From a phage, in sequence record PX418213.1: 64,000 nt of DNA; one strand, given 5' to 3'. Shown here in pieces: positions 3,343-45,862 of this stretch; positions within the stretch are counted from its first letter, which is position 1; the number at the start of each line of letters is the position of its first letter. The notes under the pieces were generated by a model. That model was not told the DNA's origin and ran no database searches. It worked only from the letters and a program-made list of their open reading frames with translations. The position numbers and the translations under genes were made by a program.

Positions 3343-3841
3343 ATTTATATTGAATTGAGAGACATTAGTAAAAATTGATTTTGCTAATTTTTCTTGTTTA
3401 CAATCCGCGATACGGAACAGTTAGGCTGCCCCATTAAGGGTTGTTTTAACTGTTACGTGTTAGTTTTTAAACAAATAATTAATAGAATACTTAGCGATCT
3501 ACATCCCGTAGGAACCCTGGTAAGGCCTCGAAGCAACCTAGTGTGAGGTGGTTGTGAAGTGAGACGGGAAGAGTGAAAAACTCTGAGAAGTGATGACGTA
3601 AGGTATACTACATCTAGTATGAGCTAGTACATGAAGCATTAGGTGAGCAAATCTGGCTTAGCGGCCATCCTCAAGGATTTGTGCGGTATAGTGAAGCGGC
3701 AGTGTAGCGTGAAAGGGGAAGTTGCCACCCCCCTTCAGTATTTGCGATTAATTTGTTGAGAAATTGACAGTAACAGTTGTTCTATTCTTTCTGAATAGTC
3801 CTAAAGAAAACTTATTTCATTTCCAACACAGGAGTATTGTT

Positions 3842-6628
3842 GTGTTCTCAATCCTACAAGGTCATGCAGGATTTCATCGCGATTTAGCCACAGGCAATTG
3901 GCGAGAAGTTAAAGCAGAAGACTATCTTTTTGCTAAAAGATTTTCCTCAAAGCATCCTGAAGGTAAACCAGCTTCAATGCCCTTCAAGTTTGATGTAATT
4001 GATGAAGTTGATCCTCAAACCCTAGTAGAAATGCTTCCTCTTATGAGACGTTTAACGTCTGACCCTCATATCGTTGCGGTACGAGGTCGATGTCTTGCAC
4101 CTAAAAATAATGTGCGACGTAAGAAGGGCAACTTTAATATATCTAACCCAAGTCATATAATTGCAATGGACGTGGATGGTATTGTAGATACAGGTGGTTG
4201 TAACAAGTTTGATCTTGTTGGCATGGCTCGACATATTATTAGAATGTTAAATAGTATTAGTGAGGATATGTTTCCTCTTGATGCAGGGTTTATTGCTCAT
4301 GCATCGTCTTCGGCTGGACTAAAACCAGGTATCCGAATGCACTTAATACTAGAATCTAATGTTAAAGTAACTCAGGGTCAAATCAAATTCTTATTTACAT
4401 CTATCAACGAAAGTAGTAGACAAAAGTATGGCTTTGATATTGCCGACTTAGCCTATTACTCTTCCGTACAGCTCCATTACTTTGCAGATCCGTTATTTAT
4501 CGATGGTATAGTAGATCCGTTTAAAGCGGAGGGTGCTTCACGTCTGGTATTTGTTAAGGGTTCTAAAGTAAATTTACCCAATAATCTGGTTGACTATGAA
4601 ACAACTAGGGGTGAGTTTAAAGAGGAGTTTTACTCTTTACTCGATCAAATTAAAGGTAAAAAAGCTGCCTCTGATAAAGTAGAGGAAACTATCAGCGAAC
4701 TAGAAGAAGCTGAGGATGGAGTGTATCTACGTATCATACCTAAACTCTATCACAGAGCTTTAGAGGATGGTGTTGACTTTGCATGGCTAGAAAAAGAAAT
4801 CCGTCCAGCCTTATCAGAGTATATTGCAACTAAAGATAATAGTCGTAATATTCAAGATTACTTTAATAACGGTCGTAAACAGGCTCTGAAAGCATTTGTT
4901 AATAATTCTAAACGTGATATACCGGATGTTTTAAAAGGTATTCCACTTAAAAAACTAGAAACTAATTCTCTAGAAACTGATAACTTCTTGAAATTAAATA
5001 CTGTACCACCAGAAGGTTATATGACTTTTGTAAAAGCAAGTCTAGGTACAGGTAAAACTACAGCGGTTGTGCGTTGGTTAGACTCAGGAGTTATTAAAGG
5101 TAATTTCTTAGCAATTACCAATACTAGAGCGCTAGTATCTTCAAATGCTAAGAAATTTAGTGCAGGACAATATGATAAGTCTGTAGATATGCTTAATTTT
5201 AAGCGTGGTGCTATTGACCGTATGTCCACAACTATTCACTCTTTGCATAAGTTCAAGAGTTTTATTGGTCAAATTGATGCAATCTTTATCGATGAATGTG
5301 ATGCTGTAATGAATGACCTATTATTCGCCCCGGTTGTTAAACAACGTCGTGAATGTATTCAGGTTCTTCGAGACATTCTTGCAACTGCAAAAATCATTAT
5401 ATTATCTGATGGGGATATTAGTGCAGAAACAATTGAAGCATATGGTTCTTTGATTGAGTTTGATAAACCGGTTGCATTTTATAATCATCACCGTAAAATG
5501 CTATCAAAAGCTCATGCTTATGAGTTCCCGGATGAATCCAGTATTTGGGTTGCACTTCAGACTTCTCTAGAGATGGGTGAGAAATCTATCCTAGTATCTG
5601 ACTGTGGGCCGGATGAACTGAATGAGAAGGGCATGGCATTACGTCGTAATACGGGTGCGTTAGTTAAGGAAATCCACTCAAACTCTACGTCTGATGTAGA
5701 TATTCGACGTATTCTGGATTACACAACTAATGAGCTAATTGATCAACAAATTGATTGCTTATTATGTAGTCCATCGGTAACAAGTGGTGTTGACTTTAAC
5801 TACTTTGATAACGTATTCGTTATTACTAGAACCTCAAACCAAGCGCCAAACATGCGTTTCCAAGCAATCAGGCGCGACCGTGGTGCTCAGAACATTTATT
5901 ATTTTATTGATAAATCTACGAGTGGGTTCTCCGCAGGTTCTGAGCAATATAACATTGATGAAGGTTGGCTGGAGTTAGCACAGCAATTATACGCACGTCG
6001 CAGGGAGCTGGAATCTAGAAACTATACTAGTACTCTACGTTATTACTTGCTTGATCAGGGTGCAACTATTGATATTTTCAGTGAAAGCTGGGGAAATATC
6101 GAAGGTGCAGGAAAAGAGTATACGGAAGAGCGAATCAAAGCTATTTTGTATTCAACTCCTGATTATTGTGCTCCACGCCATGCAGATGCGTATGAAGCTA
6201 AACTACTTCTTGTTCGCTATTACCATCTTGAGTCTATTAAAGATGTAACAGTTGAGCATGTTGAACAATATATCAAAGATAAACCGAATGATCGAGCTGC
6301 ATTCTTCCATAAGATGCACGAGATGTTCTGGGAAGATATTAAGAAGTGTTCAAATGTCACTATCAAACCCTTTATAGAAGCTCTGAAAGGTAAGAAGAAA
6401 GATTTCTTCCTTAAAACAGGTCAGAGTGCTAACCCAAAATATGCGAGAATGTATCTTGGTATGATGGGTATTGGCAAGGATATGAACACGGAGAATATTG
6501 TAGACTGGTACAGAACCTATTGTAAAATCGAGTGTATGCCAATCCCCCTAAAATTCATGACAGAGGAAGAGAAGGCCATGGCAGAAGAAGTAATGTCCGA
6601 ACTTGGAGCAACCAATGAAGATACATAA
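3842..6628 (+). CDS. large helicase-domain protein (possible replication initiator or origin-binding helicase)
   Basis: Walker A ASLGTGKTT and DExD-like box IFIDECDAV; start refined to in-frame GTG 3842 preceded by AGGAG at 7-nt spacing (ORF track starts at 3764). Confidence 0.5.
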   Translation: MFSILQGHAGFHRDLATGNWREVKAEDYLFAKRFSSKHPEGKPASMPFKFDVIDEVDPQTLVEMLPLMRRLTSDPHIVAVRGRCLAPKNNVRRKKGNFNISNPSHIIAMDVDGIVDTGGCNKFDLVGMARHIIRMLNSISEDMFPLDAGFIAHASSSAGLKPGIRMHLILESNVKVTQGQIKFLFTSINESSRQKYGFDIADLAYYSSVQLHYFADPLFIDGIVDPFKAEGASRLVFVKGSKVNLPNNLVDYETTRGEFKEEFYSLLDQIKGKKAASDKVEETISELEEAEDGVYLRIIPKLYHRALEDGVDFAWLEKEIRPALSEYIATKDNSRNIQDYFNNGRKQALKAFVNNSKRDIPDVLKGIPLKKLETNSLETDNFLKLNTVPPEGYMTFVKASLGTGKTTAVVRWLDSGVIKGNFLAITNTRALVSSNAKKFSAGQYDKSVDMLNFKRGAIDRMSTTIHSLHKFKSFIGQIDAIFIDECDAVMNDLLFAPVVKQRRECIQVLRDILATAKIIILSDGDISAETIEAYGSLIEFDKPVAFYNHHRKMLSKAHAYEFPDESSIWVALQTSLEMGEKSILVSDCGPDELNEKGMALRRNTGALVKEIHSNSTSDVDIRRILDYTTNELIDQQIDCLLCSPSVTSGVDFNYFDNVFVITRTSNQAPNMRFQAIRRDRGAQNIYYFIDKSTSGFSAGSEQYNIDEGWLELAQQLYARRRELESRNYTSTLRYYLLDQGATIDIFSESWGNIEGAGKEYTEERIKAILYSTPDYCAPRHADAYEAKLLLVRYYHLESIKDVTVEHVEQYIKDKPNDRAAFFHKMHEMFWEDIKKCSNVTIKPFIEALKGKKKDFFLKTGQSANPKYARMYLGMMGIGKDMNTENIVDWYRTYCKIECMPIPLKFMTEEEKAMAEEVMSELGATNEDT

Positions 6629-7133
6629 ACCAATGCCTCCTATGGCATTTATCCTGAAAAAGCTTAAGTATGATGAAAGTACTGGGGACTTAATTTGGTT
6701 ATCTGGCCCAAGGAAGGGAAGGGTAGCGGGCTCCAAAATGAAAACTGGGAGACAGTTAGAGTTTACTATAAAGGGAGAGCGGACAGCTTACTTAGCCCAT
6801 AGAATAATCTGGTTTATAAAAACAGGCGAAGATCCTGGGGATAAAACTATCGACCACAAAGACGGGGATAACTTAAACAACTTGTGGGATAATTTACGTA
6901 AGGCTACCTACTCCGAAAATGGAAAGAATAAGAAGTGTTCTACTAATTCTACCGGATTCACTGGAGTTGTAAAACGAGGTAATAGGTATATGGCCTACGC
7001 TTACTGTGATGGAAAGCAGCATATTTTTGGTAGACGAGATACCCCGGAAGAAGCCCATCAGCTATACCTTATGGGAGTTAAAGAACTGTTTGGTGAATTT
7101 AATCCCTCGGAGAGATATGACAGTGAAGAATAA
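6615..7133 (+). CDS. HNH homing endonuclease with AP2-type DNA-binding domain
   Basis: IDHKDGDNLNNLWDNLR (HNH His-Asn-Asn core) followed by GFTGVVKRGNRYMAYAY (AP2-like); ATG 6615 preceded by GGAG. Confidence 0.6.
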   Translation: MKIHKPMPPMAFILKKLKYDESTGDLIWLSGPRKGRVAGSKMKTGRQLEFTIKGERTAYLAHRIIWFIKTGEDPGDKTIDHKDGDNLNNLWDNLRKATYSENGKNKKCSTNSTGFTGVVKRGNRYMAYAYCDGKQHIFGRRDTPEEAHQLYLMGVKELFGEFNPSERYDSEE

Positions 7134-8123: not shown

Positions 8124-8367
8124 GCTAACAGATTTGCTTAAAGATGGGGAAGTAAAAACTCTGTATCGTAGAAGCTGGGATAATGATAATAATGGCTTAG
8201 TATTACTAACTCTAGATGCTGACTCAGATGTAGTTACCCAACATACCTGGGTAGCTGGTAATTATCCCTATAGTGAGGTTGTTACGTTAACAGTATGCGA
8301 AGCTATTGCCGACGATTGGGAGGTTGCCAGCATCGATGATATGCTCGCTGTTGGCCTGGTGGAGTAA
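8116..8367 (+). CDS. hypothetical protein (about 83 aa)
   Basis: In-frame GTG 8116 preceded by AAGGAA; ORF track starts at 8092. Confidence 0.35.
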   Translation: MSKLTDLLKDGEVKTLYRRSWDNDNNGLVLLTLDADSDVVTQHTWVAGNYPYSEVVTLTVCEAIADDWEVASIDDMLAVGLVE

Positions 8368-8384
8368 CTACAGAAAAATTTCAG

Positions 8385-8412
8385 TTGCTTAATCCTATAA
8401 TTCTTGATATAA
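8385..8412 (+). promoter_or_regulatory. sigma70 promoter
   Basis: TTGCTT, 16 nt, TATAAT, upstream of 8471. Confidence 0.5.
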
Positions 8413-8470
8413 TATTCTCATAGTTTGAAAGAACTATTCTGTTTAATTCTTAATTAAGGAAATATAAAAT

Positions 8471-8881
8471 ATGACTACTCCAACTCAGTGGACTGATGAA
8501 CTGTTCGAAAAAATGTCTTCCGAATACGTTGCTCGTATGGAGCAATTCCCAGAGGATGAACGTCCGGGTGTTAGCATGGAAATTGTTAGCGAAATTGCCC
8601 AGGAAAATGGTGTAACTCCGAACGGTTTTCGTATGAAGCTGACTAAAGCAGGTTTGTATATCAAGAAAGCTGCTGGCTCCGCTTCTAAATCTAGCGCATC
8701 TACTGGAGAAAAAGCTTCTGGTGGTTCTCGTACTTCCAAAGCCCAAGCTCATGCCGATCTTCGTTCAGCATTCTCTGATGCTGGCTTAGCACCAGATTTT
8801 CTGGATGATGCAATTATCGACAAACTGACCGGTAAAGCGGCTGCTCATCTGGCAGAAGCAATCCGAGCTATCACTAAGTAA
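8471..8881 (+). CDS. hypothetical early protein (136 aa)
   Basis: Own promoter and AAGGAA site; codon usage resembles highly expressed host genes (ctg, cgt, gct rich). Confidence 0.45.
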   Translation: MTTPTQWTDELFEKMSSEYVARMEQFPEDERPGVSMEIVSEIAQENGVTPNGFRMKLTKAGLYIKKAAGSASKSSASTGEKASGGSRTSKAQAHADLRSAFSDAGLAPDFLDDAIIDKLTGKAAAHLAEAIRAITK

Positions 8882-9264: not shown

Positions 9265-9573
9265 ATGAGCGAACAGGTAAATCAAAACTATGAAGGACAC
9301 GTTGATGACCAGTCCATCATACTCTGGGAGAAGGAGGGAGAACAAATAAGATTAACAGTATCTGAATTTCGTGGGAATCTATACATGGGTATTCGTTACT
9401 GGCTTCTTGATATTAATGATGAATGGTTTCCAACGAAATCTGGCTTCTCTTTTCCTTACACCCTAGAAACAACATCACAGCTTTTCTATGCGTTTACACA
9501 GATTCTTAGCGAATCTGAGGTTTTACATGAAGTACAGAAACGAGCTGAAGAACTCAAAGCCAAGAATGCCTAG
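9265..9573 (+). CDS. hypothetical protein (102 aa)
   Basis: ORF track; flanked by terminators. Confidence 0.45.
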   Translation: MSEQVNQNYEGHVDDQSIILWEKEGEQIRLTVSEFRGNLYMGIRYWLLDINDEWFPTKSGFSFPYTLETTSQLFYAFTQILSESEVLHEVQKRAEELKAKNA

Positions 9574-10904: not shown

Positions 10905-11047
10905 TACATAACCCTTTGCTACCCATCTACCATATCGGAATTATAAAGTGGTTATTGACATTTTCGCCGCTTAGGTATATACTATTATCATTCAGTTGAG
11001 GGATAGAAAGTTATGGCGAGGGTAAGCAAAGTTAGTTAAAATTGTAG

Positions 11048-11076
11048 TTGCTAAATGCTTAAATACTTGCTATAAT
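11048..11076 (+). promoter_or_regulatory. sigma70 promoter inside the ligase intergenic gap
   Basis: TTGCTA, 17 nt, TATAAT; a second candidate with TTGACA lies at 10955-10983. Confidence 0.5.
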
Positions 11077-11106
11077 ATTTATATAAATTGATAAGGAAGA
11101 AATTTG

Positions 11107-11886
11107 ATGAAAATCGAAATTCCAACACAATGTCCCTCTTGTGGTTCTAAGCTAGATCTTGTCAACGGACAATTATTCTGTCGGAATAAGTCCAACTGTC
11201 CAGCGCAATCAAGTAAGTTAATTGAGAACTTCTGTTCAAAAATGAAGTTAAAGGGCTTTGGCCCAAAAACTATTGAGAAGCTGGAGCTGACGAAGATTTC
11301 AGAACTATTTTACCTAACCGAAGAAGATTTGGTTAGAGCCGTGGGTAGCAAGGTTGCCGCTAAGTTAATTAGCGAATTAAATACTAAAGTTCGCGGAGAC
11401 ATTGACTTTGGTTCAGTTCTCGGTTCTTTAGGAATCCCTCTAATTGGAGAGGTTGCAGCAAAGAAATTATCCCAAAATTGCACTAGCTTCCACGATGTGA
11501 AGGCTGACGGCAAGGCTGGAGAAAACTATAAAGCCTGGCTAAATTCCCCACAAGGCAAGGATGTTATCGAACTACCGTGGAAATTCTCAACTGGTATTAA
11601 GGGCACTAAAGCTAATATTATCATTACGGATGAATTAGTTGCCCGGCCAAATGGAATCACGGTATGTATTACCGGATCTTTGCAAGATTTTGCAAATAGA
11701 ACGGATGCAACAAACTATTTAGAAAGTCTAGGATATACGGTTAAGAAATCCGTTACCAAAGACGTTAAATACCTAATCTGTGAGGATGAATCAAAACGTT
11801 CTTCCTCATCTTATAAGAAAGCCGAAACGAATGGGATAGAAATCCTGTCGATTAAAGAACTATTGGAGAAAAATAATAATGTCTAA
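11107..11886 (+). CDS. NAD-dependent DNA ligase, C-terminal ORF (Zn finger, HhH, BRCT-like)
   Basis: CPSCGSKLD...CRNKSNC zinc-finger pattern; BRCT-like ITGSLQDF segment; ATG 11107 preceded by AAGGAAGA. Confidence 0.6.
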   Translation: MKIEIPTQCPSCGSKLDLVNGQLFCRNKSNCPAQSSKLIENFCSKMKLKGFGPKTIEKLELTKISELFYLTEEDLVRAVGSKVAAKLISELNTKVRGDIDFGSVLGSLGIPLIGEVAAKKLSQNCTSFHDVKADGKAGENYKAWLNSPQGKDVIELPWKFSTGIKGTKANIIITDELVARPNGITVCITGSLQDFANRTDATNYLESLGYTVKKSVTKDVKYLICEDESKRSSSSYKKAETNGIEILSIKELLEKNNNV

Positions 11887-12646
11887 ACTGAACTGGAACG
11901 TAGAAGGTGTAACCGAGTCTCTGAAAGCAAAAGCCACTGCTCTGGGTGTTGCTGTAATCTCTCAAGAACAAGTAGCTGCTATCGCTGCTGAACTGGCCGC
12001 TGAAACTGGCAAAGATGTTACTGCTCGCTCTGTTGGCTCTAAACTGCGTAAAGAAGGTTTTGAAGTACAGAAAGCTAACGAAGTACAGAAATCCCCGTGG
12101 ACTCCTGAGCAGGAAGCTGAACTGGTTGATTTCCTGAACGCTCATGCTGGTCAGTATACCTATGCTGAGATCGCTGCTGCTGTAGCTGGTGGTCAGTTCG
12201 GTGCTAAACAGGTACAGGGTAAGATTCTGAGTCTGGAAATGACCGCTTCTGTTAAACCAACCGAAAAAGCTGCTGCTGTTCGTTCCTTCACTCCGGATGA
12301 AGAAACTGATTTTGTTAATCAGGTTGTTGCTGGTGCTACTATTGAAGCTATCGCTGCTCACTTCGGTCGCAATATTAAGCAGATCCGCGGTAAAGCTCTG
12401 AGTCTGCTTCGTGAAGGTCGTATCGCTGCTATGCCAGTACAGGAAACTTCAAGTGCTAAAACTCGTGAAGATCTGTTAGAAGGTCTGGATCTGGTTAACA
12501 TGACTGTTGCTGAGATCGCTGAGAAAACTGGTAAGTCTGAGCGCGGTGTTAAATCTATGCTGTCTCGTCGTGGTCTGGTTGCTAAGGACTATGATGGTGC
12601 CGCTAAGCGTGCTAAACTGGATGCAAAAGCTGCGGCTGCTGAATAA
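11879..12646 (+). CDS. putative DNA-binding protein with four tandem HTH-like repeats
   Basis: Four internal repeats of the form (T/Y)xAEIAxxxGxxxxxVxxKxLSL..G; host-optimal codon usage suggests high expression. Confidence 0.4.
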   Translation: MSKLNWNVEGVTESLKAKATALGVAVISQEQVAAIAAELAAETGKDVTARSVGSKLRKEGFEVQKANEVQKSPWTPEQEAELVDFLNAHAGQYTYAEIAAAVAGGQFGAKQVQGKILSLEMTASVKPTEKAAAVRSFTPDEETDFVNQVVAGATIEAIAAHFGRNIKQIRGKALSLLREGRIAAMPVQETSSAKTREDLLEGLDLVNMTVAEIAEKTGKSERGVKSMLSRRGLVAKDYDGAAKRAKLDAKAAAAE

Positions 12647-12663: not shown

Positions 12664-12697
12664 AAGGGGAGGGGGCTATGCTCCTTCCCCTTTTTGC
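12664..12697 (+). terminator. rho-independent terminator
   Basis: 12-bp stem (two G-U pairs) aaggggaggggg / ctccttcccctt followed by TTT. Confidence 0.55.
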
Positions 12698-12728: not shown

Positions 12729-14201
12729 ATGACCTTGTTTAACGTGCAAGCTGTAGTGTTGAAGATGCTTCTAGCTTCCGAACAGAAGCAAATAGCATTG
12801 GAAACATTCTCAAAACTGCATAAAGATCATTTTAATGACGCTTTCTCCTCAATTTACCAAGCCGTCCAGAATTATTATAAAAAATATAACACAATGCCGT
12901 CCATTGACGCACTTATGCTTGAAGCTAATAGGAACGCCCGCCTTTCTCAAGCTCTAGTCGTCTTAGCTAACACTCAAATTCCAGAAGTGAGCATGGAACA
13001 GGCACTTGAAGTCCTAGAAGCCGAATATACACAGGATTTATTCCTGAAGCTTCTAGAAACAGACGTGCTTCAAGATTTAACAATGCTGGATCAGGGAGAA
13101 ATTCTCAACCGAGTTGCCTCCCTTCACTTAAAATTAGAAGAGAAAGTAACGAATACTGGAAAAGTATTCAACGCAGATAACATGCGTATTTTCCAGAGAG
13201 AAGAAGATACCAAACTGAACTTAATCGCTCTTGGTATTTGTAATGAGTTCGACGCTCAAATTGGTTTAGCTCGCACAGAAACGTTACTGCTTGGTGGTTG
13301 GCGTGGTACTGGTAAATCCATTATCTGTTCAAACATACAGGTTCAGCAATATTTGAATGGGGATATTGCTCCATACTTCTCAATTGAGATGAAAGAACAT
13401 GAGGTATTTAGACGTAATCTAGCCATGTTAGCTGGTGTATCAGCATTAGCAATGCGTAATAATACTCTAGAAGGTGCAGCTCTGTTGAGATTAGCCAGAA
13501 CTAGAGCTAGAATGTTTAATGGTGGTGAAGAGCTTTTCGATAACTTCGTTAAACAGTACACAATGGCTAAGATGAGTGATTTCTACGATATGGAGAGTAA
13601 GCTAATAGAAGGATATGAGCTACATACTCCTATGATTATTGTTTATGACCCTGAGCTGTCTATTACAACAGTTGACGTAGAATTAAATAAATTAGTTGCT
13701 AGATATGGTGATAAAGTTACAGTAGCTTTACTGGACTATATTAACCAAACCCGACTTCCAGACTCTAAAACCATTGATATGTATGACTGGAAAGAACAGA
13801 TGGTTGTCAGCTCGTCTTTCAAATCTATCTGCCAGAAACATAACGTGGCTGGTGTAGCTCCTTACCAGATCGATCAAGATGGTAGAACACGTATGTCAAA
13901 GGGGATTCTTGATTCCGCAGACATGGCTGCTAATCTTAATGCTGCAAAAGCTGATAATGGTCAAGGTGCTATTATGTTTGACTTCGTTAAGACTCGTTCT
14001 TCTGATAGCGTGAAGTTTATGCCTAAAATGAACTGGGAAACTCTGCGAATGGATAACACTACCAACCTAGCAATGGAAGATATATCTCAAATGGAAGCTG
14101 AGTTCGTTATCCCTATTGAGAAGGATAAGCCGGCTCAACCTAAACGTGCTAAGAAAGACAAAACTGAAAATTCAACAGGTGAACAGGCCAGCGATATATG
14201 A
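12729..14201 (+). CDS. DnaB-like replicative helicase
   Basis: Walker A GGWRGTGKS in the C-terminal RecA-like domain; ORF track start 12678 lies inside the upstream terminator, so ATG 12729 (or in-frame TTG 12735 with better AAGGAG spacing) is more likely. Confidence 0.6.
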   Translation: MTLFNVQAVVLKMLLASEQKQIALETFSKLHKDHFNDAFSSIYQAVQNYYKKYNTMPSIDALMLEANRNARLSQALVVLANTQIPEVSMEQALEVLEAEYTQDLFLKLLETDVLQDLTMLDQGEILNRVASLHLKLEEKVTNTGKVFNADNMRIFQREEDTKLNLIALGICNEFDAQIGLARTETLLLGGWRGTGKSIICSNIQVQQYLNGDIAPYFSIEMKEHEVFRRNLAMLAGVSALAMRNNTLEGAALLRLARTRARMFNGGEELFDNFVKQYTMAKMSDFYDMESKLIEGYELHTPMIIVYDPELSITTVDVELNKLVARYGDKVTVALLDYINQTRLPDSKTIDMYDWKEQMVVSSSFKSICQKHNVAGVAPYQIDQDGRTRMSKGILDSADMAANLNAAKADNGQGAIMFDFVKTRSSDSVKFMPKMNWETLRMDNTTNLAMEDISQMEAEFVIPIEKDKPAQPKRAKKDKTENSTGEQASDI

Positions 14202-15150: not shown

Positions 15151-17718
15151 TTGAAAATCGCAGTAGTTGATAAAGCTCTAAATAACACTCGTTACGATAA
15201 ACATTTCCAGCTATACGGCGAGGAAGTTGATGTATTCCATATGTGTAACGAGAAGTTATCTGGTCGTTTGCTTAAAAAGCACATTACTATTGGAACACCA
15301 GAAAACCCATTTGATCCGAATGATTATGATTTTGTTATACTAGTAGGTGCTGAACCTTTCCTGTATTTCGCAGGTAAGAAAGGTATTGGTGACTATACTG
15401 GTAAACGTGTAGAGTATAATGGATATGCTAACTGGATTGCGAGTATCAGCCCAGCCCAGTTACACTTTAAGCCTGAAATGAAACCAGTTTTCGATGCAAC
15501 AGTAGAGAATATCCACGATATTATCAATGGTCGTGAGAAGATTGCAAAAGCTGGTGATTACCGTCCTATTACTGACCCTGACGAGGCAGAAGAATATATC
15601 AAGATGGTGTATAATATGGTTATCGGACCTGTCGCATTCGACTCCGAAACCTCAGCACTATACTGTCGAGATGGTTATCTGCTTGGTGTTTCTATGTCTC
15701 ACCAAGAATATCAGGGTGTATATATCGATTCTGATTGTCTCACAGAGGTTGCAGTATATTATCTCCAGAAAATTCTGGATAGTGAAAACCACACTATTGT
15801 TTTTCACAACTTGAAGTTTGATATGCACTTTTATAAGTACCATCTGGGACTTACTTTTGATAAAGCACATAAAGAACGTAGGCTCCATGATACCATGTTG
15901 CAGCATTATGTTCTGGATGAACGTCGTGGTACTCATGGCTTGAAATCTCTAGCAATGAAGTATACCGATATGGGTGACTATGACTTTGAACTAGATAAGT
16001 TCAAGGAGGATTACTGCAAAGCACATAAAATCAAGAAAGAAGATTTCACCTATGATTTAATTCCGTTTGATATTATGTGGCCTTACGCTGCAAAAGATAC
16101 CGATGCCACCATACGTTTGCATAACTTCTTCTTACCAAAAATTGAGAAGAATGAAAAACTTTGCAGTCTGTATTATGACGTTCTAATGCCTGGTTGCGTA
16201 TTTCTCCAGCGTGTTGAGGATCGTGGTGTACCTATTTCTATTGATCGTTTAAAAGAAGCTCAGTACCAGTTAACACATAATCTGAATAAAGCTCGTGAAA
16301 AGCTGTATACTTATCCAGAAGTCGTTCAGCTAGAGAAAGATCAGAACGAAGCGTTTAACCCAAACTCTGTTAAACAACTCCGTGTTCTTCTGTTTGATTA
16401 TGTTGGCTTAACTCCAACAGGTAAATTGACGGATACTGGAGCAGACTCTACAGATGCAGAAGCTCTGAACGAACTGTCTACGCAGCATCCAATTGCTAAA
16501 ACTCTGCTAGAGATTCGTAAGCTAACTAAGCTGATCTCTACTTACGTTGAGAAGATTCTTCTGAGCATTGATGCTGATGGTTGCATTCGTACTGGCTTCC
16601 ACGAACACATGACTACTTCTGGTCGTCTGAGTTCTTCTGGTAAACTGAACCTGCAACAGCTACCTCGTGATGAATCTATTATCAAGGGTTGTGTAGTAGC
16701 TCCTCCCGGGTATCGTGTAATCGCGTGGGACTTAACAACTGCGGAAGTTTATTATGCTGCTGTTCTATCTGGTGATAGAAATATGCAACAAGTATTTATC
16801 AACATGAGAAATGAACCAGATAAATACCCTGACTTCCACTCTAACATCGCACACATGGTATTTAAGCTCCAATGCGAACCTCGTGATGTTAAAAAGTTAT
16901 TCCCAGCTCTGCGTCAGGCTGCTAAGGCAATTACCTTCGGTATTTTGTATGGTTCTGGCCCGGCTAAAGTAGCTCATTCTGTTAATGAAGCTCTTCTGGA
17001 ACAAGCTGCTAAGACAGGTGAACCGTTTGTAGAGTGTACTGTTGCAGATGCTAAAGAGTACATTGAAACTTACTTCGGTCAGTTCCCGCAGCTTAAGCGT
17101 TGGATTGATAAATGTCATGACCAGATCAAGAATCATGGATTTATCTATAGTCACTTTGGTCGTAAACGTCGTCTGCATAATATCCATTCCGAAGACCGTG
17201 GTGTTCAGGGTGAAGAAATCCGTTCTGGATTTAACGCAATCATTCAGTCTGCTTCTTCTGATAGTCTCCTTTTAGGTGCTGTAGATGCAGATAATGAGAT
17301 CATTTCTCTTGGCCTAGAACAAGAGATGAAGATTGTTATGCTGGTTCATGACTCCGTAGTTGCTATTGTTCGTGAGGATTTGATCGACCAATACAATGAA
17401 ATCCTGATTCGTAATATTCAGAAAGACCGTGGTATCAGTATTCCTGGCTGTCCGATTGGTATTGATTCAGATTCTGAAACTGGAGGTTCTCGTGACTATT
17501 CTTGTGGTAAGATGAAGAAACAGCACCCATCAATCGCTTGTATTGATGATGATGAATATACTCGTTATGTCAAGGGTGTATTACTTGATGCAGAGTTCGA
17601 GTATAAGAAACTAGCTGCAATGGATAAAGAGCATCCAGATCATAGCAAATACAAGGATGATAAGTTTATTGCTGTATGTAAAGATTTGGATAACGTGAGA
17701 AGGATTCTCGGTGCTTGA
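15151..17718 (+). CDS. family-A DNA polymerase with 3'-5' exonuclease domain
   Basis: Exo motif FDSETSALY; Pol I motif A AWDLTTAEVYY, motif B RQAAKAITFGILYGSG, motif C LVHDS; 855 aa; TTG start after GAGGAG. Confidence 0.85.
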   Translation: MKIAVVDKALNNTRYDKHFQLYGEEVDVFHMCNEKLSGRLLKKHITIGTPENPFDPNDYDFVILVGAEPFLYFAGKKGIGDYTGKRVEYNGYANWIASISPAQLHFKPEMKPVFDATVENIHDIINGREKIAKAGDYRPITDPDEAEEYIKMVYNMVIGPVAFDSETSALYCRDGYLLGVSMSHQEYQGVYIDSDCLTEVAVYYLQKILDSENHTIVFHNLKFDMHFYKYHLGLTFDKAHKERRLHDTMLQHYVLDERRGTHGLKSLAMKYTDMGDYDFELDKFKEDYCKAHKIKKEDFTYDLIPFDIMWPYAAKDTDATIRLHNFFLPKIEKNEKLCSLYYDVLMPGCVFLQRVEDRGVPISIDRLKEAQYQLTHNLNKAREKLYTYPEVVQLEKDQNEAFNPNSVKQLRVLLFDYVGLTPTGKLTDTGADSTDAEALNELSTQHPIAKTLLEIRKLTKLISTYVEKILLSIDADGCIRTGFHEHMTTSGRLSSSGKLNLQQLPRDESIIKGCVVAPPGYRVIAWDLTTAEVYYAAVLSGDRNMQQVFINMRNEPDKYPDFHSNIAHMVFKLQCEPRDVKKLFPALRQAAKAITFGILYGSGPAKVAHSVNEALLEQAAKTGEPFVECTVADAKEYIETYFGQFPQLKRWIDKCHDQIKNHGFIYSHFGRKRRLHNIHSEDRGVQGEEIRSGFNAIIQSASSDSLLLGAVDADNEIISLGLEQEMKIVMLVHDSVVAIVREDLIDQYNEILIRNIQKDRGISIPGCPIGIDSDSETGGSRDYSCGKMKKQHPSIACIDDDEYTRYVKGVLLDAEFEYKKLAAMDKEHPDHSKYKDDKFIAVCKDLDNVRRILGA

Positions 17719-19777: not shown

Positions 19778-20062
19778 ATGCTTACAGAGCCTGATGCTCA
19801 CCAATTATTGGTCGGTTCCTCATTCATTTTGAATGAATCAACAATAGTTGATAATCCAAATAAATTGTCTAATAGACAACTGGCAGAATATCTAGGAATT
19901 TTAAGTCTACGAAATTATGCCGAATACAAGTTTACAAACGATCCTAGTTTGGACATACAATATGTTCCAGTATGGATACCACGTTTAGTAATCGACATTA
20001 ACCCACTAATCGCAATTAACAAATCGAAATTAATCTTTAAAGAGGAAATAAAATATGGCTAA
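19778..20062 (+). CDS. hypothetical protein (94 aa)
   Basis: ORF track; weak ribosome-binding site. Confidence 0.3.
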   Translation: MLTEPDAHQLLVGSSFILNESTIVDNPNKLSNRQLAEYLGILSLRNYAEYKFTNDPSLDIQYVPVWIPRLVIDINPLIAINKSKLIFKEEIKYG

Positions 20063-20828
20063 GTCTTGGGGCGAAACTACTGGCGGTTCTAACGATAAAA
20101 TCGAATTCCTGAAGTTCAACAACGGTATCACTCGTGTTCGTATCGTTTCTGGTGTTCTTCCACGTTATGTTTATTGGCTGACTAATAAAGACGGTAACGC
20201 AGCTCCTTTCGAGTGTCTCCGTTTTAACCGTGACAAAGAGAGCTTTGTTCGTGGTAAAGCTGATCCGGTTCATGAGATGGGCTTCTTCGAGAAAGAGCTG
20301 GATAAAGATGGTAATCGTGTTCCGCTGAAACCGAAGAAAAACTATATCGCTTTTGTTATCGACCGTTCTGATAACAAACTGAAAGTAATGGAAGTCAAGG
20401 CTACTATTCTGAAAGGCATCCAGTCTATCATGAAGCAGTTGAGCCTGGCAACTCCATTTGATATTGATATTTCTATCGAGAAAAAAGGTAAAGGTTTCGA
20501 TACTGAGTATGATGTACAGCAGATTGCTGCTATGCAGTTCCAGATTAAGCTGCAAGATCCTAACAGTGCGGAATCCAAGCAATATGCTGCGGATGTAGAT
20601 CTGATCGGTGAAGCTATGTGTGATGAAGATGGCGACATCATTAAGTTCGAAAAAGTTCCTTCTCTGGAACAAACCTATCCGGTTCCTACCTATGAAGAGC
20701 AGAAAGAAGCAATTCTAGCCTTCATGGAGGGTCGTGAGAATAAAGATGATGATGCCAAATCTGGTAATAGCAATGCAGGCTCCCAGAAAGGTATTGACTC
20801 AGAAGCTGCAAGCGATCTGGACGACTAA
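20055..20828 (+). CDS. putative ssDNA-binding protein
   Basis: Strong AAAGAGGAAA site; highly-expressed-type codon usage; acidic C-terminal tail EAASDLDD as in SSB-type proteins; no diagnostic motif, so tentative. Confidence 0.35.
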   Translation: MAKSWGETTGGSNDKIEFLKFNNGITRVRIVSGVLPRYVYWLTNKDGNAAPFECLRFNRDKESFVRGKADPVHEMGFFEKELDKDGNRVPLKPKKNYIAFVIDRSDNKLKVMEVKATILKGIQSIMKQLSLATPFDIDISIEKKGKGFDTEYDVQQIAAMQFQIKLQDPNSAESKQYAADVDLIGEAMCDEDGDIIKFEKVPSLEQTYPVPTYEEQKEAILAFMEGRENKDDDAKSGNSNAGSQKGIDSEAASDLDD

Positions 20829-20834
20829 TAAATA

Positions 20835-20859
20835 GAGGGGCTTCGGCCCCTTTCTTTTT
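20835..20859 (+). terminator. rho-independent terminator
   Basis: gaggggc-ttcg-gcccct followed by TTTCTTTTT. Confidence 0.65.
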
Positions 20860-41413: not shown

Positions 41414-42805
41414 TTAACCACCTGTTACAGTAATCTGTTTAGTGCCTTTAACTCCGGAACCATCTTTAGCAGTAGCTTCCACAGTTACTGCACCAGTTTT
41501 ACTAGCATTTGCTGTTAGTAACCCTGTTGCATTGATAGTAGCTGCATCACCGGCAGTGATAGCCCAGGTAACATCCTTATTCCTTGCGGAAGAGGGAGTA
41601 ACTTCAACACTCATCTGAAGAGTTTGTCCAGTCCGAACAGAAGTAGCCTCACCGGCAGATTTAACAGTAATTGCAGTTACAGCATCAGTAGCACCATCAC
41701 CATTAACAATCAAGTTATTAATAGTTGTTTTAGTATATTTACTAGAGAAACCTAAGTAACCTTCATCACCAGCATCCAGCTCTGACGGAATAGCCTTAAA
41801 CTCTACTGATGTACCAAGTACATCATCAGTCTCAATCGTAGGGATGTTAACGTGCGCTTGTTTAGCTACCAGAATAGCTGCAGGACGTTCATCCTCATAC
41901 TCGCCACCAAGTACTAGAGCTATTTCGAAGCGGTTAACTACCTTCAGAGTTTTAATAAGATCTTTATACAGTTCCATAGAACCAAGAGATTTATCATTCA
42001 GGTAAGCAGTTAATGAACCAGTTAATTCAAAAGCACCGGTAAAGGAACCAATTGGAATAGTAACACGGGACATTACATTAGGTGTTAAATAAGTAATGTT
42101 GTTGTTAATAGTAAAAGTACCACCGGTAATCGGTATGTCATAAGACTTATTGGTATCCATGTCCTTGATCTTCAAGATCGTTAGTTTGTTCTTAATATAA
42201 GAACCCTGGATAGTCATATAAGTTTCATCATCAATACCTAGCTGATCTGGGTCAAATGGGGCGGAATCCAGAGGAATAAGCTGATTACCATTACCAGACC
42301 AAGTTACACGGCCGATATCTTCGATATCAACGTTAACTTCTGCCTGATTAATCTGACAGGAATCAATATAACTCCATGCTTTATCAGTCAGAATATAAAT
42401 ATGTAACATTGCTAACTCATGATAGGAGTTATCTTTGAAGTTAACCATGAAGTTAGTTGCATTATTGTGCGCCCCTGTATTACCTTCTAAGTTAATAGCT
42501 TTACCACTAGAAAGTGCATGCCATAACATATAGTCAGGAACAATTTGTTTGCTAGTAGTTTTATCTTTATACGGTAGGATGTAAGTAGAGAAACTCCACT
42601 CAGCTGCGTTTAAAGAGTCGTTAAAACGTTTAGAACCACGAGTTGGACGCGGACCAGCTTCATTAACAGTAATATCTGTTGAGTTACTGTCCTGACCCCA
42701 AGAAATATCATCCTGAACTAGAATCTCTTGCGTGTTGGTCTTATTATGACCAGTCTTAACCGTAGACACGAAGATTCGAGTATTACGTAATAGTTGTAAA
42801 GACAT
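41414..42805 (-). CDS. major tail tube protein with C-terminal Ig-like domain
   Basis: 463 aa; C-terminal region TVKSAGEATSVRTGQTLQMSVEVTPSSARNKDVTWAITAGDAATINATGLLTA is typical of Big_2-like Ig domains. Confidence 0.7.
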   Translation of the reverse strand: MSLQLLRNTRIFVSTVKTGHNKTNTQEILVQDDISWGQDSNSTDITVNEAGPRPTRGSKRFNDSLNAAEWSFSTYILPYKDKTTSKQIVPDYMLWHALSSGKAINLEGNTGAHNNATNFMVNFKDNSYHELAMLHIYILTDKAWSYIDSCQINQAEVNVDIEDIGRVTWSGNGNQLIPLDSAPFDPDQLGIDDETYMTIQGSYIKNKLTILKIKDMDTNKSYDIPITGGTFTINNNITYLTPNVMSRVTIPIGSFTGAFELTGSLTAYLNDKSLGSMELYKDLIKTLKVVNRFEIALVLGGEYEDERPAAILVAKQAHVNIPTIETDDVLGTSVEFKAIPSELDAGDEGYLGFSSKYTKTTINNLIVNGDGATDAVTAITVKSAGEATSVRTGQTLQMSVEVTPSSARNKDVTWAITAGDAATINATGLLTANASKTGAVTVEATAKDGSGVKGTKQITVTGG

Positions 42806-44088: not shown

Positions 44089-44600
44089 TATACTCTCCTA
44101 TATACTTCAATAATAGTACGAATATGCTCTGGGATACCAGACTTAGTGCTATTGAAGGTTACTGTTTCACCACCAATTGTTTTAGCTTGGCGGTAATCTT
44201 GTTTGTGCCAATGATCTACTAGCATACACGCTGCAAGTTTGAGATCTTCAGGTATTGGATTAAACCCACCTTGTGTATATGCTACATCCATATAACCTTC
44301 TGGAGGATTAAATTTGAGAAGGATAATACCGTCAGAGTATAGCTTATACTGCTCTGGGTCAATCTCATTATCGTTAATCGTCACTTTAGTTACGGAGGTA
44401 GCAGATGGTGAACTCAGAAAATATTTCCTACGTGTAGGTTTTGTATTGATTAACTGGTCTACCGCATCAGCATCATCCATGCCTAGAAGGCTCGTAATCA
44501 GCGCATTGGCAGCAGTAATCATCATTTCTACACCAGATTCTAATTCAGGTCGTTTTAACCCACCATATAATCTATAATCTTCGGCTGTGATGATTTGCAT
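44088..44600 (-). CDS. head completion (connector) protein (170 aa)
   Basis: Position directly after the capsid gene and its terminator. Confidence 0.4.
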   Translation of the reverse strand: MQIITAEDYRLYGGLKRPELESGVEMMITAANALITSLLGMDDADAVDQLINTKPTRRKYFLSSPSATSVTKVTINDNEIDPEQYKLYSDGIILLKFNPPEGYMDVAYTQGGFNPIPEDLKLAACMLVDHWHKQDYRQAKTIGGETVTFNSTKSGIPEHIRTIIEVYRRV

Positions 44601-44610
44601 TTATTTTCCC

Positions 44611-44638
44611 AATAAAAAAGGAGAGCCGAAGCTCTCCT
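44611..44638 (-). terminator. intrinsic terminator after the major capsid gene
   Basis: Stem aggagagc / gctctcct, loop cgaa, followed on the minus strand by TTTTTTATTGGGAAAA. Confidence 0.6.
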
Positions 44639-44658
44639 TATCGGCTGAAAAGCCTGTA

Positions 44659-45351
44659 TTAAACGGCAGCGTAAGCACCAGATACAACGCCATTATTAAA
44701 GTAACGTTGCAGGTTAACACGCTGAGTAACGTAGTATGCATCACGCTGTTTACCAGCTTGGCGCTCACGTTCAACAGTAACAGCACGCTGACGTGGCATT
44801 ACGAAGTTATCTTTATAAACAATAACTGCGAACTCTTTATCAGCCGCTTTAGCTGGGAAGTACTCAGAAACTACAACCGGCAGACCGTAAATACGACCAA
44901 CTTGACCTTGCAGTTTAACAGCATCATTACCAACCTGGGAAACATCCTGCCATTCTTCATCTTCCAGCAGATCGTAGTAAGCATCCATAGATACAATCAG
45001 TACCAGTTTGCTCAGCTTCAGGCCATGACGGCCCAGTTTACGACGCAGTTTAGAGATAGTTTTAGCAGTTACCATAACAGAACCATCAGCTTTAGCTTCG
45101 GTAGTAACTTTAGCACTATCTTCACTAGCAAGAGTCAGCAGACCTTTCGGTTTACCAGAACCATCACCAGTCATGAAAGCTTCTTCGATAGAAACAGCAT
45201 GTGCTTCAATCAGACGCTTACGCAGCAGCGGCAGCAGGGAGAAGATTGCATCTTCTTCAGTTTCATCAGTAATAAAGGACTTAGCAGCCAGTTTGTAGGT
45301 CTTAAACGTCACGAATGATACGCTGAGAGAAGATAGTTTCATAGCTTTCAC
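44659..45351 (-). CDS. major capsid protein (HK97 fold), downstream reading-frame segment
   Basis: MCP-like C-terminal sequence GLPVVVSEYF; begins in a different frame from the upstream delta-domain ORF. Confidence 0.55.
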   Translation of the reverse strand: MKAMKLSSLSVSFVTFKTYKLAAKSFITDETEEDAIFSLLPLLRKRLIEAHAVSIEEAFMTGDGSGKPKGLLTLASEDSAKVTTEAKADGSVMVTAKTISKLRRKLGRHGLKLSKLVLIVSMDAYYDLLEDEEWQDVSQVGNDAVKLQGQVGRIYGLPVVVSEYFPAKAADKEFAVIVYKDNFVMPRQRAVTVERERQAGKQRDAYYVTQRVNLQRYFNNGVVSGAYAAV

Positions 45352-45862
45352 TAGAAACTTCTACAGAAGAAGACTGATTCACTGCTTTAAGGTGATTCTG
45401 ACCATGTTCAGTTTCGAATACGCCTTTTTCCATTACATAGGACAACAGAACCAGTTTTTCTACTTCGTCTTCAAAGTTTTCCTGAGTACCGTACAGTGCT
45501 TTAGCAACACTATCACCAACGAAGGAACGACCTTCACGAGCTGTTAGCAGAGATTTGATTTCGTCCTGAAGACCAACAATAGTTTCCTGCTGTTTTTCTA
45601 CGGTTTGTGCAAACAGTTCTGCACTCTTCTTAGATTTCTCATCCAGCGACTTAACCAGTTCCAGAGCCTCTTCCAGACGCTTACGATCTTCGCCAACTGC
45701 TTTAGAAACCAGGTCATTCATACGAGCCAGTTCTTTTTCTTCCTGCTCTTTACGCATACGTTCAGCTTCCTGAGCTTTCTGAGCAGCGGTCAGACCTTCC
45801 AGAGATTTAGCCAGATCACCCAGACCAAGTTCTTCTTTCAGCTTATTAATATCAATAGTCAT
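45302..45862 (-). CDS. major capsid protein precursor, N-terminal scaffolding (delta) domain segment
   Basis: Coiled-coil-rich 186 aa ORF directly after the protease gene; ends at TAA 45302 in a frame offset by one from the downstream MCP segment. Confidence 0.5.
   Translation of the reverse strand: MTIDINKLKEELGLGDLAKSLEGLTAAQKAQEAERMRKEQEEKELARMNDLVSKAVGEDRKRLEEALELVKSLDEKSKKSAELFAQTVEKQQETIVGLQDEIKSLLTAREGRSFVGDSVAKALYGTQENFEDEVEKLVLLSYVMEKGVFETEHGQNHLKAVNQSSSVEVSSESYETIFSQRIIRDV

Follow-up and report, generated by a model that had tools for sequence, protein, structure and literature searches.

The early gene D5 of bacteriophage T5 (T5.118; protein YP_006946.1) has been known since the 1970s, as have the DNA-binding activity of its product and the part it plays in replication and in late transcription. 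Classical biochemistry reportedly identified a product of ~29 kDa that binds double-stranded DNA cooperatively; strand displacement by the T5 polymerase is said to be inhibited on D5-saturated DNA, and D5 to co-purify with a transcription-replication complex. The T5 reference record describes a DNA-binding protein that is needed for DNA replication and late transcription and is also involved in the shutoff of expression, and PMC12630848, citing McCorquodale et al. 1979, implicates D5 in replication and in suppressing the expression of early genes. More recently, T5 D5 (255 residues, with a helix-turn-helix, HTH) was named as the trigger of retron-Kva2 and found to be toxic to E. coli when expressed alone; T5 escapers of this retron carry mutations in D5, D2, and D3, and D5 is predicted to bind the stem-loop of the retron multicopy single-stranded DNA (msDNA), mimicking the retron winged-helix protein (10.64898/2026.07.11.737809). 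Here, we describe the D5 gene of another phage, an open reading frame (ORF) at positions 11879..12646 on the plus strand of a 64,000-nucleotide stretch of DNA (sequence record PX418213.1; the whole stretch is referred to as the window). Its product is very probably an abundant protein with four HTH units that coats double-stranded phage DNA and aids both replication and the early-to-late switch.

In the ORF list of the window, a single ATG-to-TAA frame encoding 255 amino acids accounts exactly for the interval that a first-pass annotation had marked as one gene, and it agrees with T5.118 in both length and position. Full-length homology identifies it as the ortholog of T5 D5 and as a member of the D5 family; PHROG 323 ('transcriptional regulator, D5-like') matches residues 1-253 (E = 1.5e-71), and this match and the T5 annotation both support the first-pass proposal of an abundant DNA-coating or transcription-switch protein. 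The two genes differ at 24 of 768 nucleotides, 22 of the 24 in third codon positions, and protein identity rounds to 100%, such that the protein is essentially identical to that of T5 and under strong purifying selection. A megablast search with the ORF returned 437 records of phages, all T5-like (of Salmonella, Escherichia, and relatives), with DNA identities of 90-99%; the best matches (98-99%) are in Salmonella and Escherichia T5-like phages. The matched features are labeled 'D5: putative transcription factor D5', 'DNA-binding protein', or 'hypothetical protein', and the feature adjoining them is annotated 'NAD-dependent DNA ligase subunit B'.

Gene order in the window is that of T5 (origin-binding protein, HNH endonuclease, D2, D3, ligA, ligB, D5, DnaB-like D6, primase, DNA polymerase, D10, D11, D12, D13), and D5 follows and overlaps ligB and precedes the DnaB-like helicase gene in the window, in T5, and in a marine relative known from metagenomic data (~53% protein identity). 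With equal length (255 amino acids), the same place between ligB and D6, the same overlap with the end of ligB, and matching upstream promoter positions, nothing of substance distinguishes this gene from T5 D5, and by homology and gene order the window belongs to another T5-like phage (Demerecviridae). The residue numbers given for T5 D5 in the retron preprint (G53, W74, V149) fit this ORF. The family is broad: 592 representative clusters match at E <= 1e-3, of which 77 reach E <= 1e-30. Most full-length matches to the D5 profile are ~230-262 residues long, and family members keep their syntenic place in T5-like phages down to ~50% identity.

The codon usage of D5 sets it apart from its neighbors. 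Sharp-Li codon adaptation indices (CAI) were calculated for 76 non-overlapping ORFs of the window using weights from 30 E. coli K-12 genes for ribosomal proteins, EF-Tu, and EF-G, and z-scores were obtained from 2000 simulations in which the amino acid sequence was kept and synonymous codons were redrawn from window-wide usage. D5 has the highest CAI of the 76 (0.767; mean 0.336, standard deviation 0.11), well above its genome neighbors and within the range of the reference genes (0.558-0.836), whose own mean of 0.679 it exceeds. The resampled value is 0.376 +/- 0.027, and none of the 2000 simulations reaches the observed one (z = 14.5); the effective number of codons (31.4) is the lowest among ORFs of at least 100 codons (median 45.2). 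The first-pass annotation had read the choice of ctg, cgt, gct, and ggt as unlike that of the surrounding genes and as a sign of high expression, and had proposed a gene-by-gene index as a check. These expectations hold, with fractions in D5 and in the window background of 0.89 and 0.13 for CTG, 0.87 and 0.45 for GCT, 0.89 and 0.53 for GGT, and 0.67 and 0.41 for CGT. The two further ORFs that it had listed as similarly biased prove to be D3 and D11, with the same bias (Table 1). The only other ORFs adapted to the level of D5, D11, and D3 are two pieces of the major capsid gene, and the best-adapted genes of the window are thus those for products needed in bulk.

Adaptation this extreme implies a high translational yield of D5. 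Intermediate values for the DNA polymerase (15151..17718, plus strand; CAI 0.468, z = 9.1) and the major tail tube protein (41414..42805, minus strand; CAI 0.448, z = 5.7) suggest that CAI is graded with the required amount of protein across the genome. There are no tRNA genes in the window. In the AT-rich marine relative, mutational AT bias dominates and makes the mid-range effective number of codons of the D5 homolog (41.5) uninformative; the avoidance of TTA, ATA, and AGT by this homolog relative to neighboring genes is a hint only.

The first-pass annotation had also described four tandem repeats of ~55 residues, each with an HTH-like core, and had suggested repeat detection and structure prediction. 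Both analyses recover four HTH units and the shared core; the equality of the repeats is only approximate, and the fourth is structurally divergent. Repeats were compared by Smith-Waterman alignment of the single sequence against 300 shuffles, and by hhalign, using repeat profiles taken from a family alignment of 64 sequences. Both methods clearly relate repeats 2 and 3 (z = 7.3, with 0 of 300 shuffles reaching the score; hhalign probability 96%, E = 2e-9), and the remaining pairs give hhalign E values of 8e-5 to 5e-4, except repeats 2 and 4 at 1e-2. All pairs align in one HTH register, centered on an A-E-I-A...G...V..K..L core, and at the DNA level, the stretches encoding A-E/A-I-A-A and KQ-x-x-GK-x-LSL recur at ~164-189 nucleotides (~55-63 codons). 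As single sequences, all pairs other than repeats 2 and 3 align weakly, and repeat 1 aligns with repeats 2 and 3 no better than shuffled controls do.

An AlphaFold2 model built from an alignment of 63 sequences with the T5 row left out has a mean predicted local distance difference test (pLDDT) score of 94.6 and contains four separate HTH units with pLDDT above 90. Three are three-helix units spanning residues 11-58, 76-118, and 139-178, and in the C-terminal unit an HTH of two helices (residues 210-217 and 221-231) is followed by a small beta hairpin and then by a long, basic helix (240-254). As modeled, D5 is therefore a chain of four HTH units, three of them alike (Myb/homeodomain-like) and the fourth divergent. 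Two distant family members (P0194, 289 amino acids, and P0225, 292 amino acids) have five such units as read from their sequences, and in longer, unrelated proteins the D5 profile finds 6-10 separate matching stretches, which marks the HTH unit as a real, duplicating module.

The conserved positions of the family are concentrated in one element of these modules. Fourteen of the 19 family-invariant positions lie in the four third helices, which make up 17% of the chain (hypergeometric p = 2e-8). The third helices have net charges of +2 to +4, and helices 1 and 2 of the repeats have charges of -1 to -4, except for helix 1 of repeat 1 (+1). In the context of the model, such a distribution would be expected were each module to make its DNA contacts through its third helix.

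A further indication of abundance comes from Yersinia phage phiR2-01, whose D5 homolog is one of seven proteins with >100 spectral counts in particle preparations and the sole one of the seven not known as a T5 virion component (PMC8624392). This proteome is independent evidence for very high abundance, tight association with DNA, or both, in keeping with the high expression implied by the codons. No transcriptome or proteome from a T5 infection time course that lists D5 emerged from the literature.

A plausible sequence of events can be proposed. ligB and D5 would be co-transcribed from two strong early promoters, at the positions of the T5 promoters P-K28b and P-K28a, with most transcripts ending at a hairpin behind D5. 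With codons at the level of host ribosomal protein genes, D5 would be translated far more efficiently than ligB from the shared mRNA, and would accumulate to stoichiometric amounts. Its DNA binding and its requirement for replication and late transcription, as given by the annotation and literature on T5, presumably apply here as well. We infer that each module touches DNA through its basic third helix, such that one D5 molecule would span several successive grooves and many molecules would coat the double-stranded DNA. Coating would be the active form, and the coated template would support replication, shut off early promoters, and permit late transcription.

Several observations weigh against this proposal. 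First, D5 is net neutral (34 Lys and Arg against 34 Asp and Glu; isoelectric point 6.8), which is unusual for a nonspecific DNA coat. Second, the predicted template modeling score of the AlphaFold2 model is just 0.57, so that the relative arrangement of the modules, and hence the DNA footprint, is undefined in the model. Third, the coating mode and its cooperativity rest on what the classical biochemistry is said to have found. Fourth, one retron-Kva2 escaper carries D5 W74* together with three D5 missense mutations and one D2 missense mutation, which is hard to square with strict essentiality (10.64898/2026.07.11.737809). Finally, an above-threshold match to a sigma factor domain in the C-terminal module leaves room for a specific interaction with RNA polymerase or promoters.

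This last point favors the strongest alternative, that D5 is mainly a sequence-specific transcription factor or sigma-like adaptor, whose C-terminal module recognizes late promoters or docks on host RNA polymerase, and which acts catalytically rather than by coating. Residues 204-230, an HTH with a basic second helix as in sigma-70 region 4, match Pfam PF08281 (Sigma70_r4_2) with 28.7 bits against a cutoff of 25.7 (E = 1.1e-6). However, this is a half-profile match covering only positions 23-49 of 54, a match to Sigma70_r3 is sub-threshold and falls on the same HTH of repeat 4, and there is no Pfam match to Sigma70_r2 at E <= 1; D5 lacks sigma regions 2 and 3 and is not a sigma factor. Moreover, codon adaptation at the level of ribosomal protein genes, common to the single-strand DNA-binding protein (SSB) and the capsid protein, indicates that D5 is made in stoichiometric amounts, the phiR2-01 homolog is as prominent in particle preparations as structural proteins are, and the T5 annotation has D5 required for replication also. 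We consider such an adaptor unlikely as the main role of D5, and note that it and the coating of DNA are not mutually exclusive.

Recent horizontal acquisition from the host or another genome, rather than selection for high expression, could also give rise to odd codon usage and base composition, and the GC content of D5 (47%) is indeed above that of its neighbors (~38-40%). This explanation is very improbable. The raised GC content comes largely from the composition of the protein (45 Ala, or 18%, and 19 Gly), and the GC content at third codon positions (0.315) is like that of the neighboring genes. The bias is a choice among synonymous codons that includes the T-ending host-optimal GCT, GGT, CGT, ACT, and TCT, and three further genes for bulk proteins in the window share it. 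The D5 family is conserved and syntenic in T5-like phages down to ~50% identity, and a host origin is ruled out, with no blastn match down to ~65-70% identity in 5,426 complete E. coli genomes. Less credible still is a chance impression of repeats in an alanine-rich, low-complexity, single non-repetitive domain, which the alanine content and the failure of repeat 1 to align with repeats 2 and 3 as single sequences might suggest, but which is at odds with the z-score of 7.3 and 96% profile probability for repeats 2 and 3, the common register of the other pairs, the four confidently modeled HTH units, and the five-unit and multi-stretch relatives.

The organization of the locus is that of a short transcription unit (Table 1). 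The start of D5 overlaps the end of ligB by 8 nucleotides (ATGTCTAA), as it does in T5 and in the marine relative. Two sigma-70 promoter-like sequences lie exactly where annotated T5 promoters fall: with an offset of 2568, P-K28b (T5 positions 8367-8441) corresponds to window positions 10935-11009, and P-K28a (8460-8534) to 11028-11102. The marine relative has a promoter-like sequence with 12 of 12 consensus matches and a TG extension between ligA and ligB, its ligB overlaps the D5 homolog, and a hairpin (6748-6771) directly follows the homolog, ahead of the genes for the DnaB-like helicase, primase, and polymerase. As read from both genomes, the layout of promoter or promoters, ligB, D5, and terminator is conserved. 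Within this unit, D5 has nearly three times the CAI of ligB (0.77 vs 0.29), the gene predicted to share its mRNA. A terminator-like hairpin also follows D11 (20834-20853).

Table 1. Coordinates and codon adaptation of D5, its modules, its transcription unit, and other genes of the window
Feature	Position	Strand	CAI	z	Remarks
D3 (T5.113, DNA-binding protein)	8471..8881	+	0.628	6.7	PHROG 1725, E = 4.7e-50; T5 annotation
Sigma-70 promoter-like TTGACA-17-TATACT	10955..10983	+			11/12 matches; at T5 P-K28b position
Sigma-70 promoter-like TTGCTA-17-TATAAT	11048..11076	+			Extended TG; at T5 P-K28a position
ligB, NAD-dependent DNA ligase subunit B	11104..11886	+	0.293	-1.6	Upstream gene of D5 transcription unit; poor codon adaptation
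GGAG Shine-Dalgarno-like site	11865..11868	+			10-nucleotide A-rich spacer, then D5 ATG; read from the sequence
D5, ortholog of T5.118	11879..12646	+	0.767	14.5	255 amino acids, 27.0 kDa; double-stranded-DNA-binding protein; top host-codon adaptation in window
Repeat 1 (residues 6-62)	11894..12064	+			Helices 11-22, 29-43, 49-58; third helix ARSVGSKLRK, net charge +4; invariant W6, R50, K55, L56, R57
Repeat 2 (residues 74-121)	12098..12241	+			Myb/homeodomain-like; helices 76-88, 95-101, 109-118; third helix AKQVQGKILS; invariant Q113, G114, K115, L117
Repeat 3 (residues 137-181)	12287..12421	+			Myb/homeodomain-like; helices 139-150, 155-162, 166-178; third helix IKQIRGKALSLLR; invariant G171, K172, L174
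Repeat 4 (residues 196-254)	12464..12640	+			Divergent HTH, beta hairpin, basic C-terminal helix; sigma-70 region 4-like; invariant G223, L228, R231
Intrinsic-terminator-like hairpin	12664..12692	+			13 pairs, 8 G-C, T-rich tail; 18 nucleotides past D5 stop
D11 (T5.126, SSB)	20055..20828	+	0.653	10.6	PHROG 1607, E = 2.7e-106; T5 annotation
Major capsid gene, C part	44659..45351	-	0.716	13.8	
Major capsid gene, N part	45302..45862	-	0.697	11.9	

The D5 modules resemble several described HTH proteins in part. In the model the first three have the fold of Myb/SANT domains, a three-helix bundle with the HTH formed by helices 2 and 3; the Myb/SANT profile PF00249 stays below its gathering score (17.6 bits vs 24.4, E = 0.0043, residues 71-100), and the three tryptophans found at regular spacing in Myb repeats are missing from D5. 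Pfam matches on repeats other than repeat 4 (HTH_23, Myb, and winged-helix) are all sub-threshold, among them HTH_23 on repeat 3 (residues 151-184, E = 1.6e-4). Comparable three-helix DNA-binding repeats include c-Myb R1-R3, the Timeless DNA-binding repeats, SANT and LUX domains, the Tc3/paired bipartite domains, and the GcrA DNA-binding domain. Foldseek finds no significant match in the PDB for the whole D5 chain (best E 0.12), and no full-length structural match there for four such units in one small phage protein. In a viral structure library, full-length matches are to D5 homologs only (template modeling scores 0.75-0.78), and other multi-HTH phage proteins match weakly. A profile search of PDB sequences found no solved structure of a D5 relative, with only a marginal match to a designed engrailed homeodomain (E = 0.0036).

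A functional analogy, and only that, can be drawn with p6 of Bacillus phage phi29, as both are early proteins that bind double-stranded DNA and are tied to replication and to the early-to-late switch. The p6 protein is abundant and required for phi29 replication. It has no sequence or fold relationship to D5, binds DNA in another mode, and is not an HTH-repeat protein. Synergistic binding of phi29 p4 and p6 to DNA, leading to the transcription switch, is described in PMC3100819.

We also note several features around the locus. The first ATG of the DnaB-like helicase ORF (12678), which is the start used in the T5 D6 annotation, lies in the loop of the hairpin after D5, and as the PHROG helicase match leaves out the residues before position 15, translation may in fact start at Met18 (12729). 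In T5, D6 and the primase gene are separated by hegJ (T5.120; T5 positions 11615-12148), which encodes an HNH homing endonuclease; the window lacks this gene, D6 (ending at 14201) passing directly into the primase gene (from 14198), but has a hegI-like HNH gene at 6603..7133. In the marine relative, a PC4-domain protein is encoded just upstream of ligA (3810-4118), in the position of T5.115 (window 9265..9573), and a SET-domain protein between the DnaB-like helicase and primase genes (8144-8509).

Long antisense ORFs lie opposite the two most codon-biased genes: 11852..12361 (minus strand, 169 amino acids) opposite D5, and 44587..45318 (plus strand, 243 amino acids) opposite the capsid gene. 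Both are Ser/Phe/Asn-rich and look more like shadows of the codon-biased sense strand than like genes, and the former was rejected as a gene; in a greedy gene call that favors the longest ORF, the latter took the place of the true C-terminal capsid ORF. The major capsid gene itself (44659..45862, minus strand) is interrupted near 45307/45308, leaving two ORFs in different frames (186 and 230 amino acids). It lacks 173 nucleotides relative to the intact 458-amino-acid gene of Escherichia phage VAH1, and the missing piece was not found elsewhere in the window, which suggests either an assembly error or a genome that is defective.

As a discovery, the presence of this gene carries little weight, as D5 is known for T5 and a 2026 preprint already predicted its HTH and named it as the retron trigger. 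The explicit map of four modules, with conservation focused on four basic third helices, offers direct targets for mutagenesis, and the conserved layout of strong promoter or promoters, ligB, D5, and terminator is a useful by-product. In the part of a T5-like genome covered here, host adaptation is strongest in exactly the genes for the bulk DNA-binding proteins D5, D3, and D11 and for the capsid protein, with D5 on top. A more speculative proposal, which we regard as improbable, is that D5 acts as a phage 'chromatin' protein, in which the three Myb-like modules would coat replicated DNA and the sigma-region-4-like module would contact host RNA polymerase or replace -35 recognition, such that only D5-coated, and thus replicated, DNA would be competent for late transcription; some D5 might even remain bound and be packaged, as the phiR2-01 particles hint. 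If true, this chromatin-like dual role would be a physical explanation for the long-known coupling of late transcription to replication in T5.

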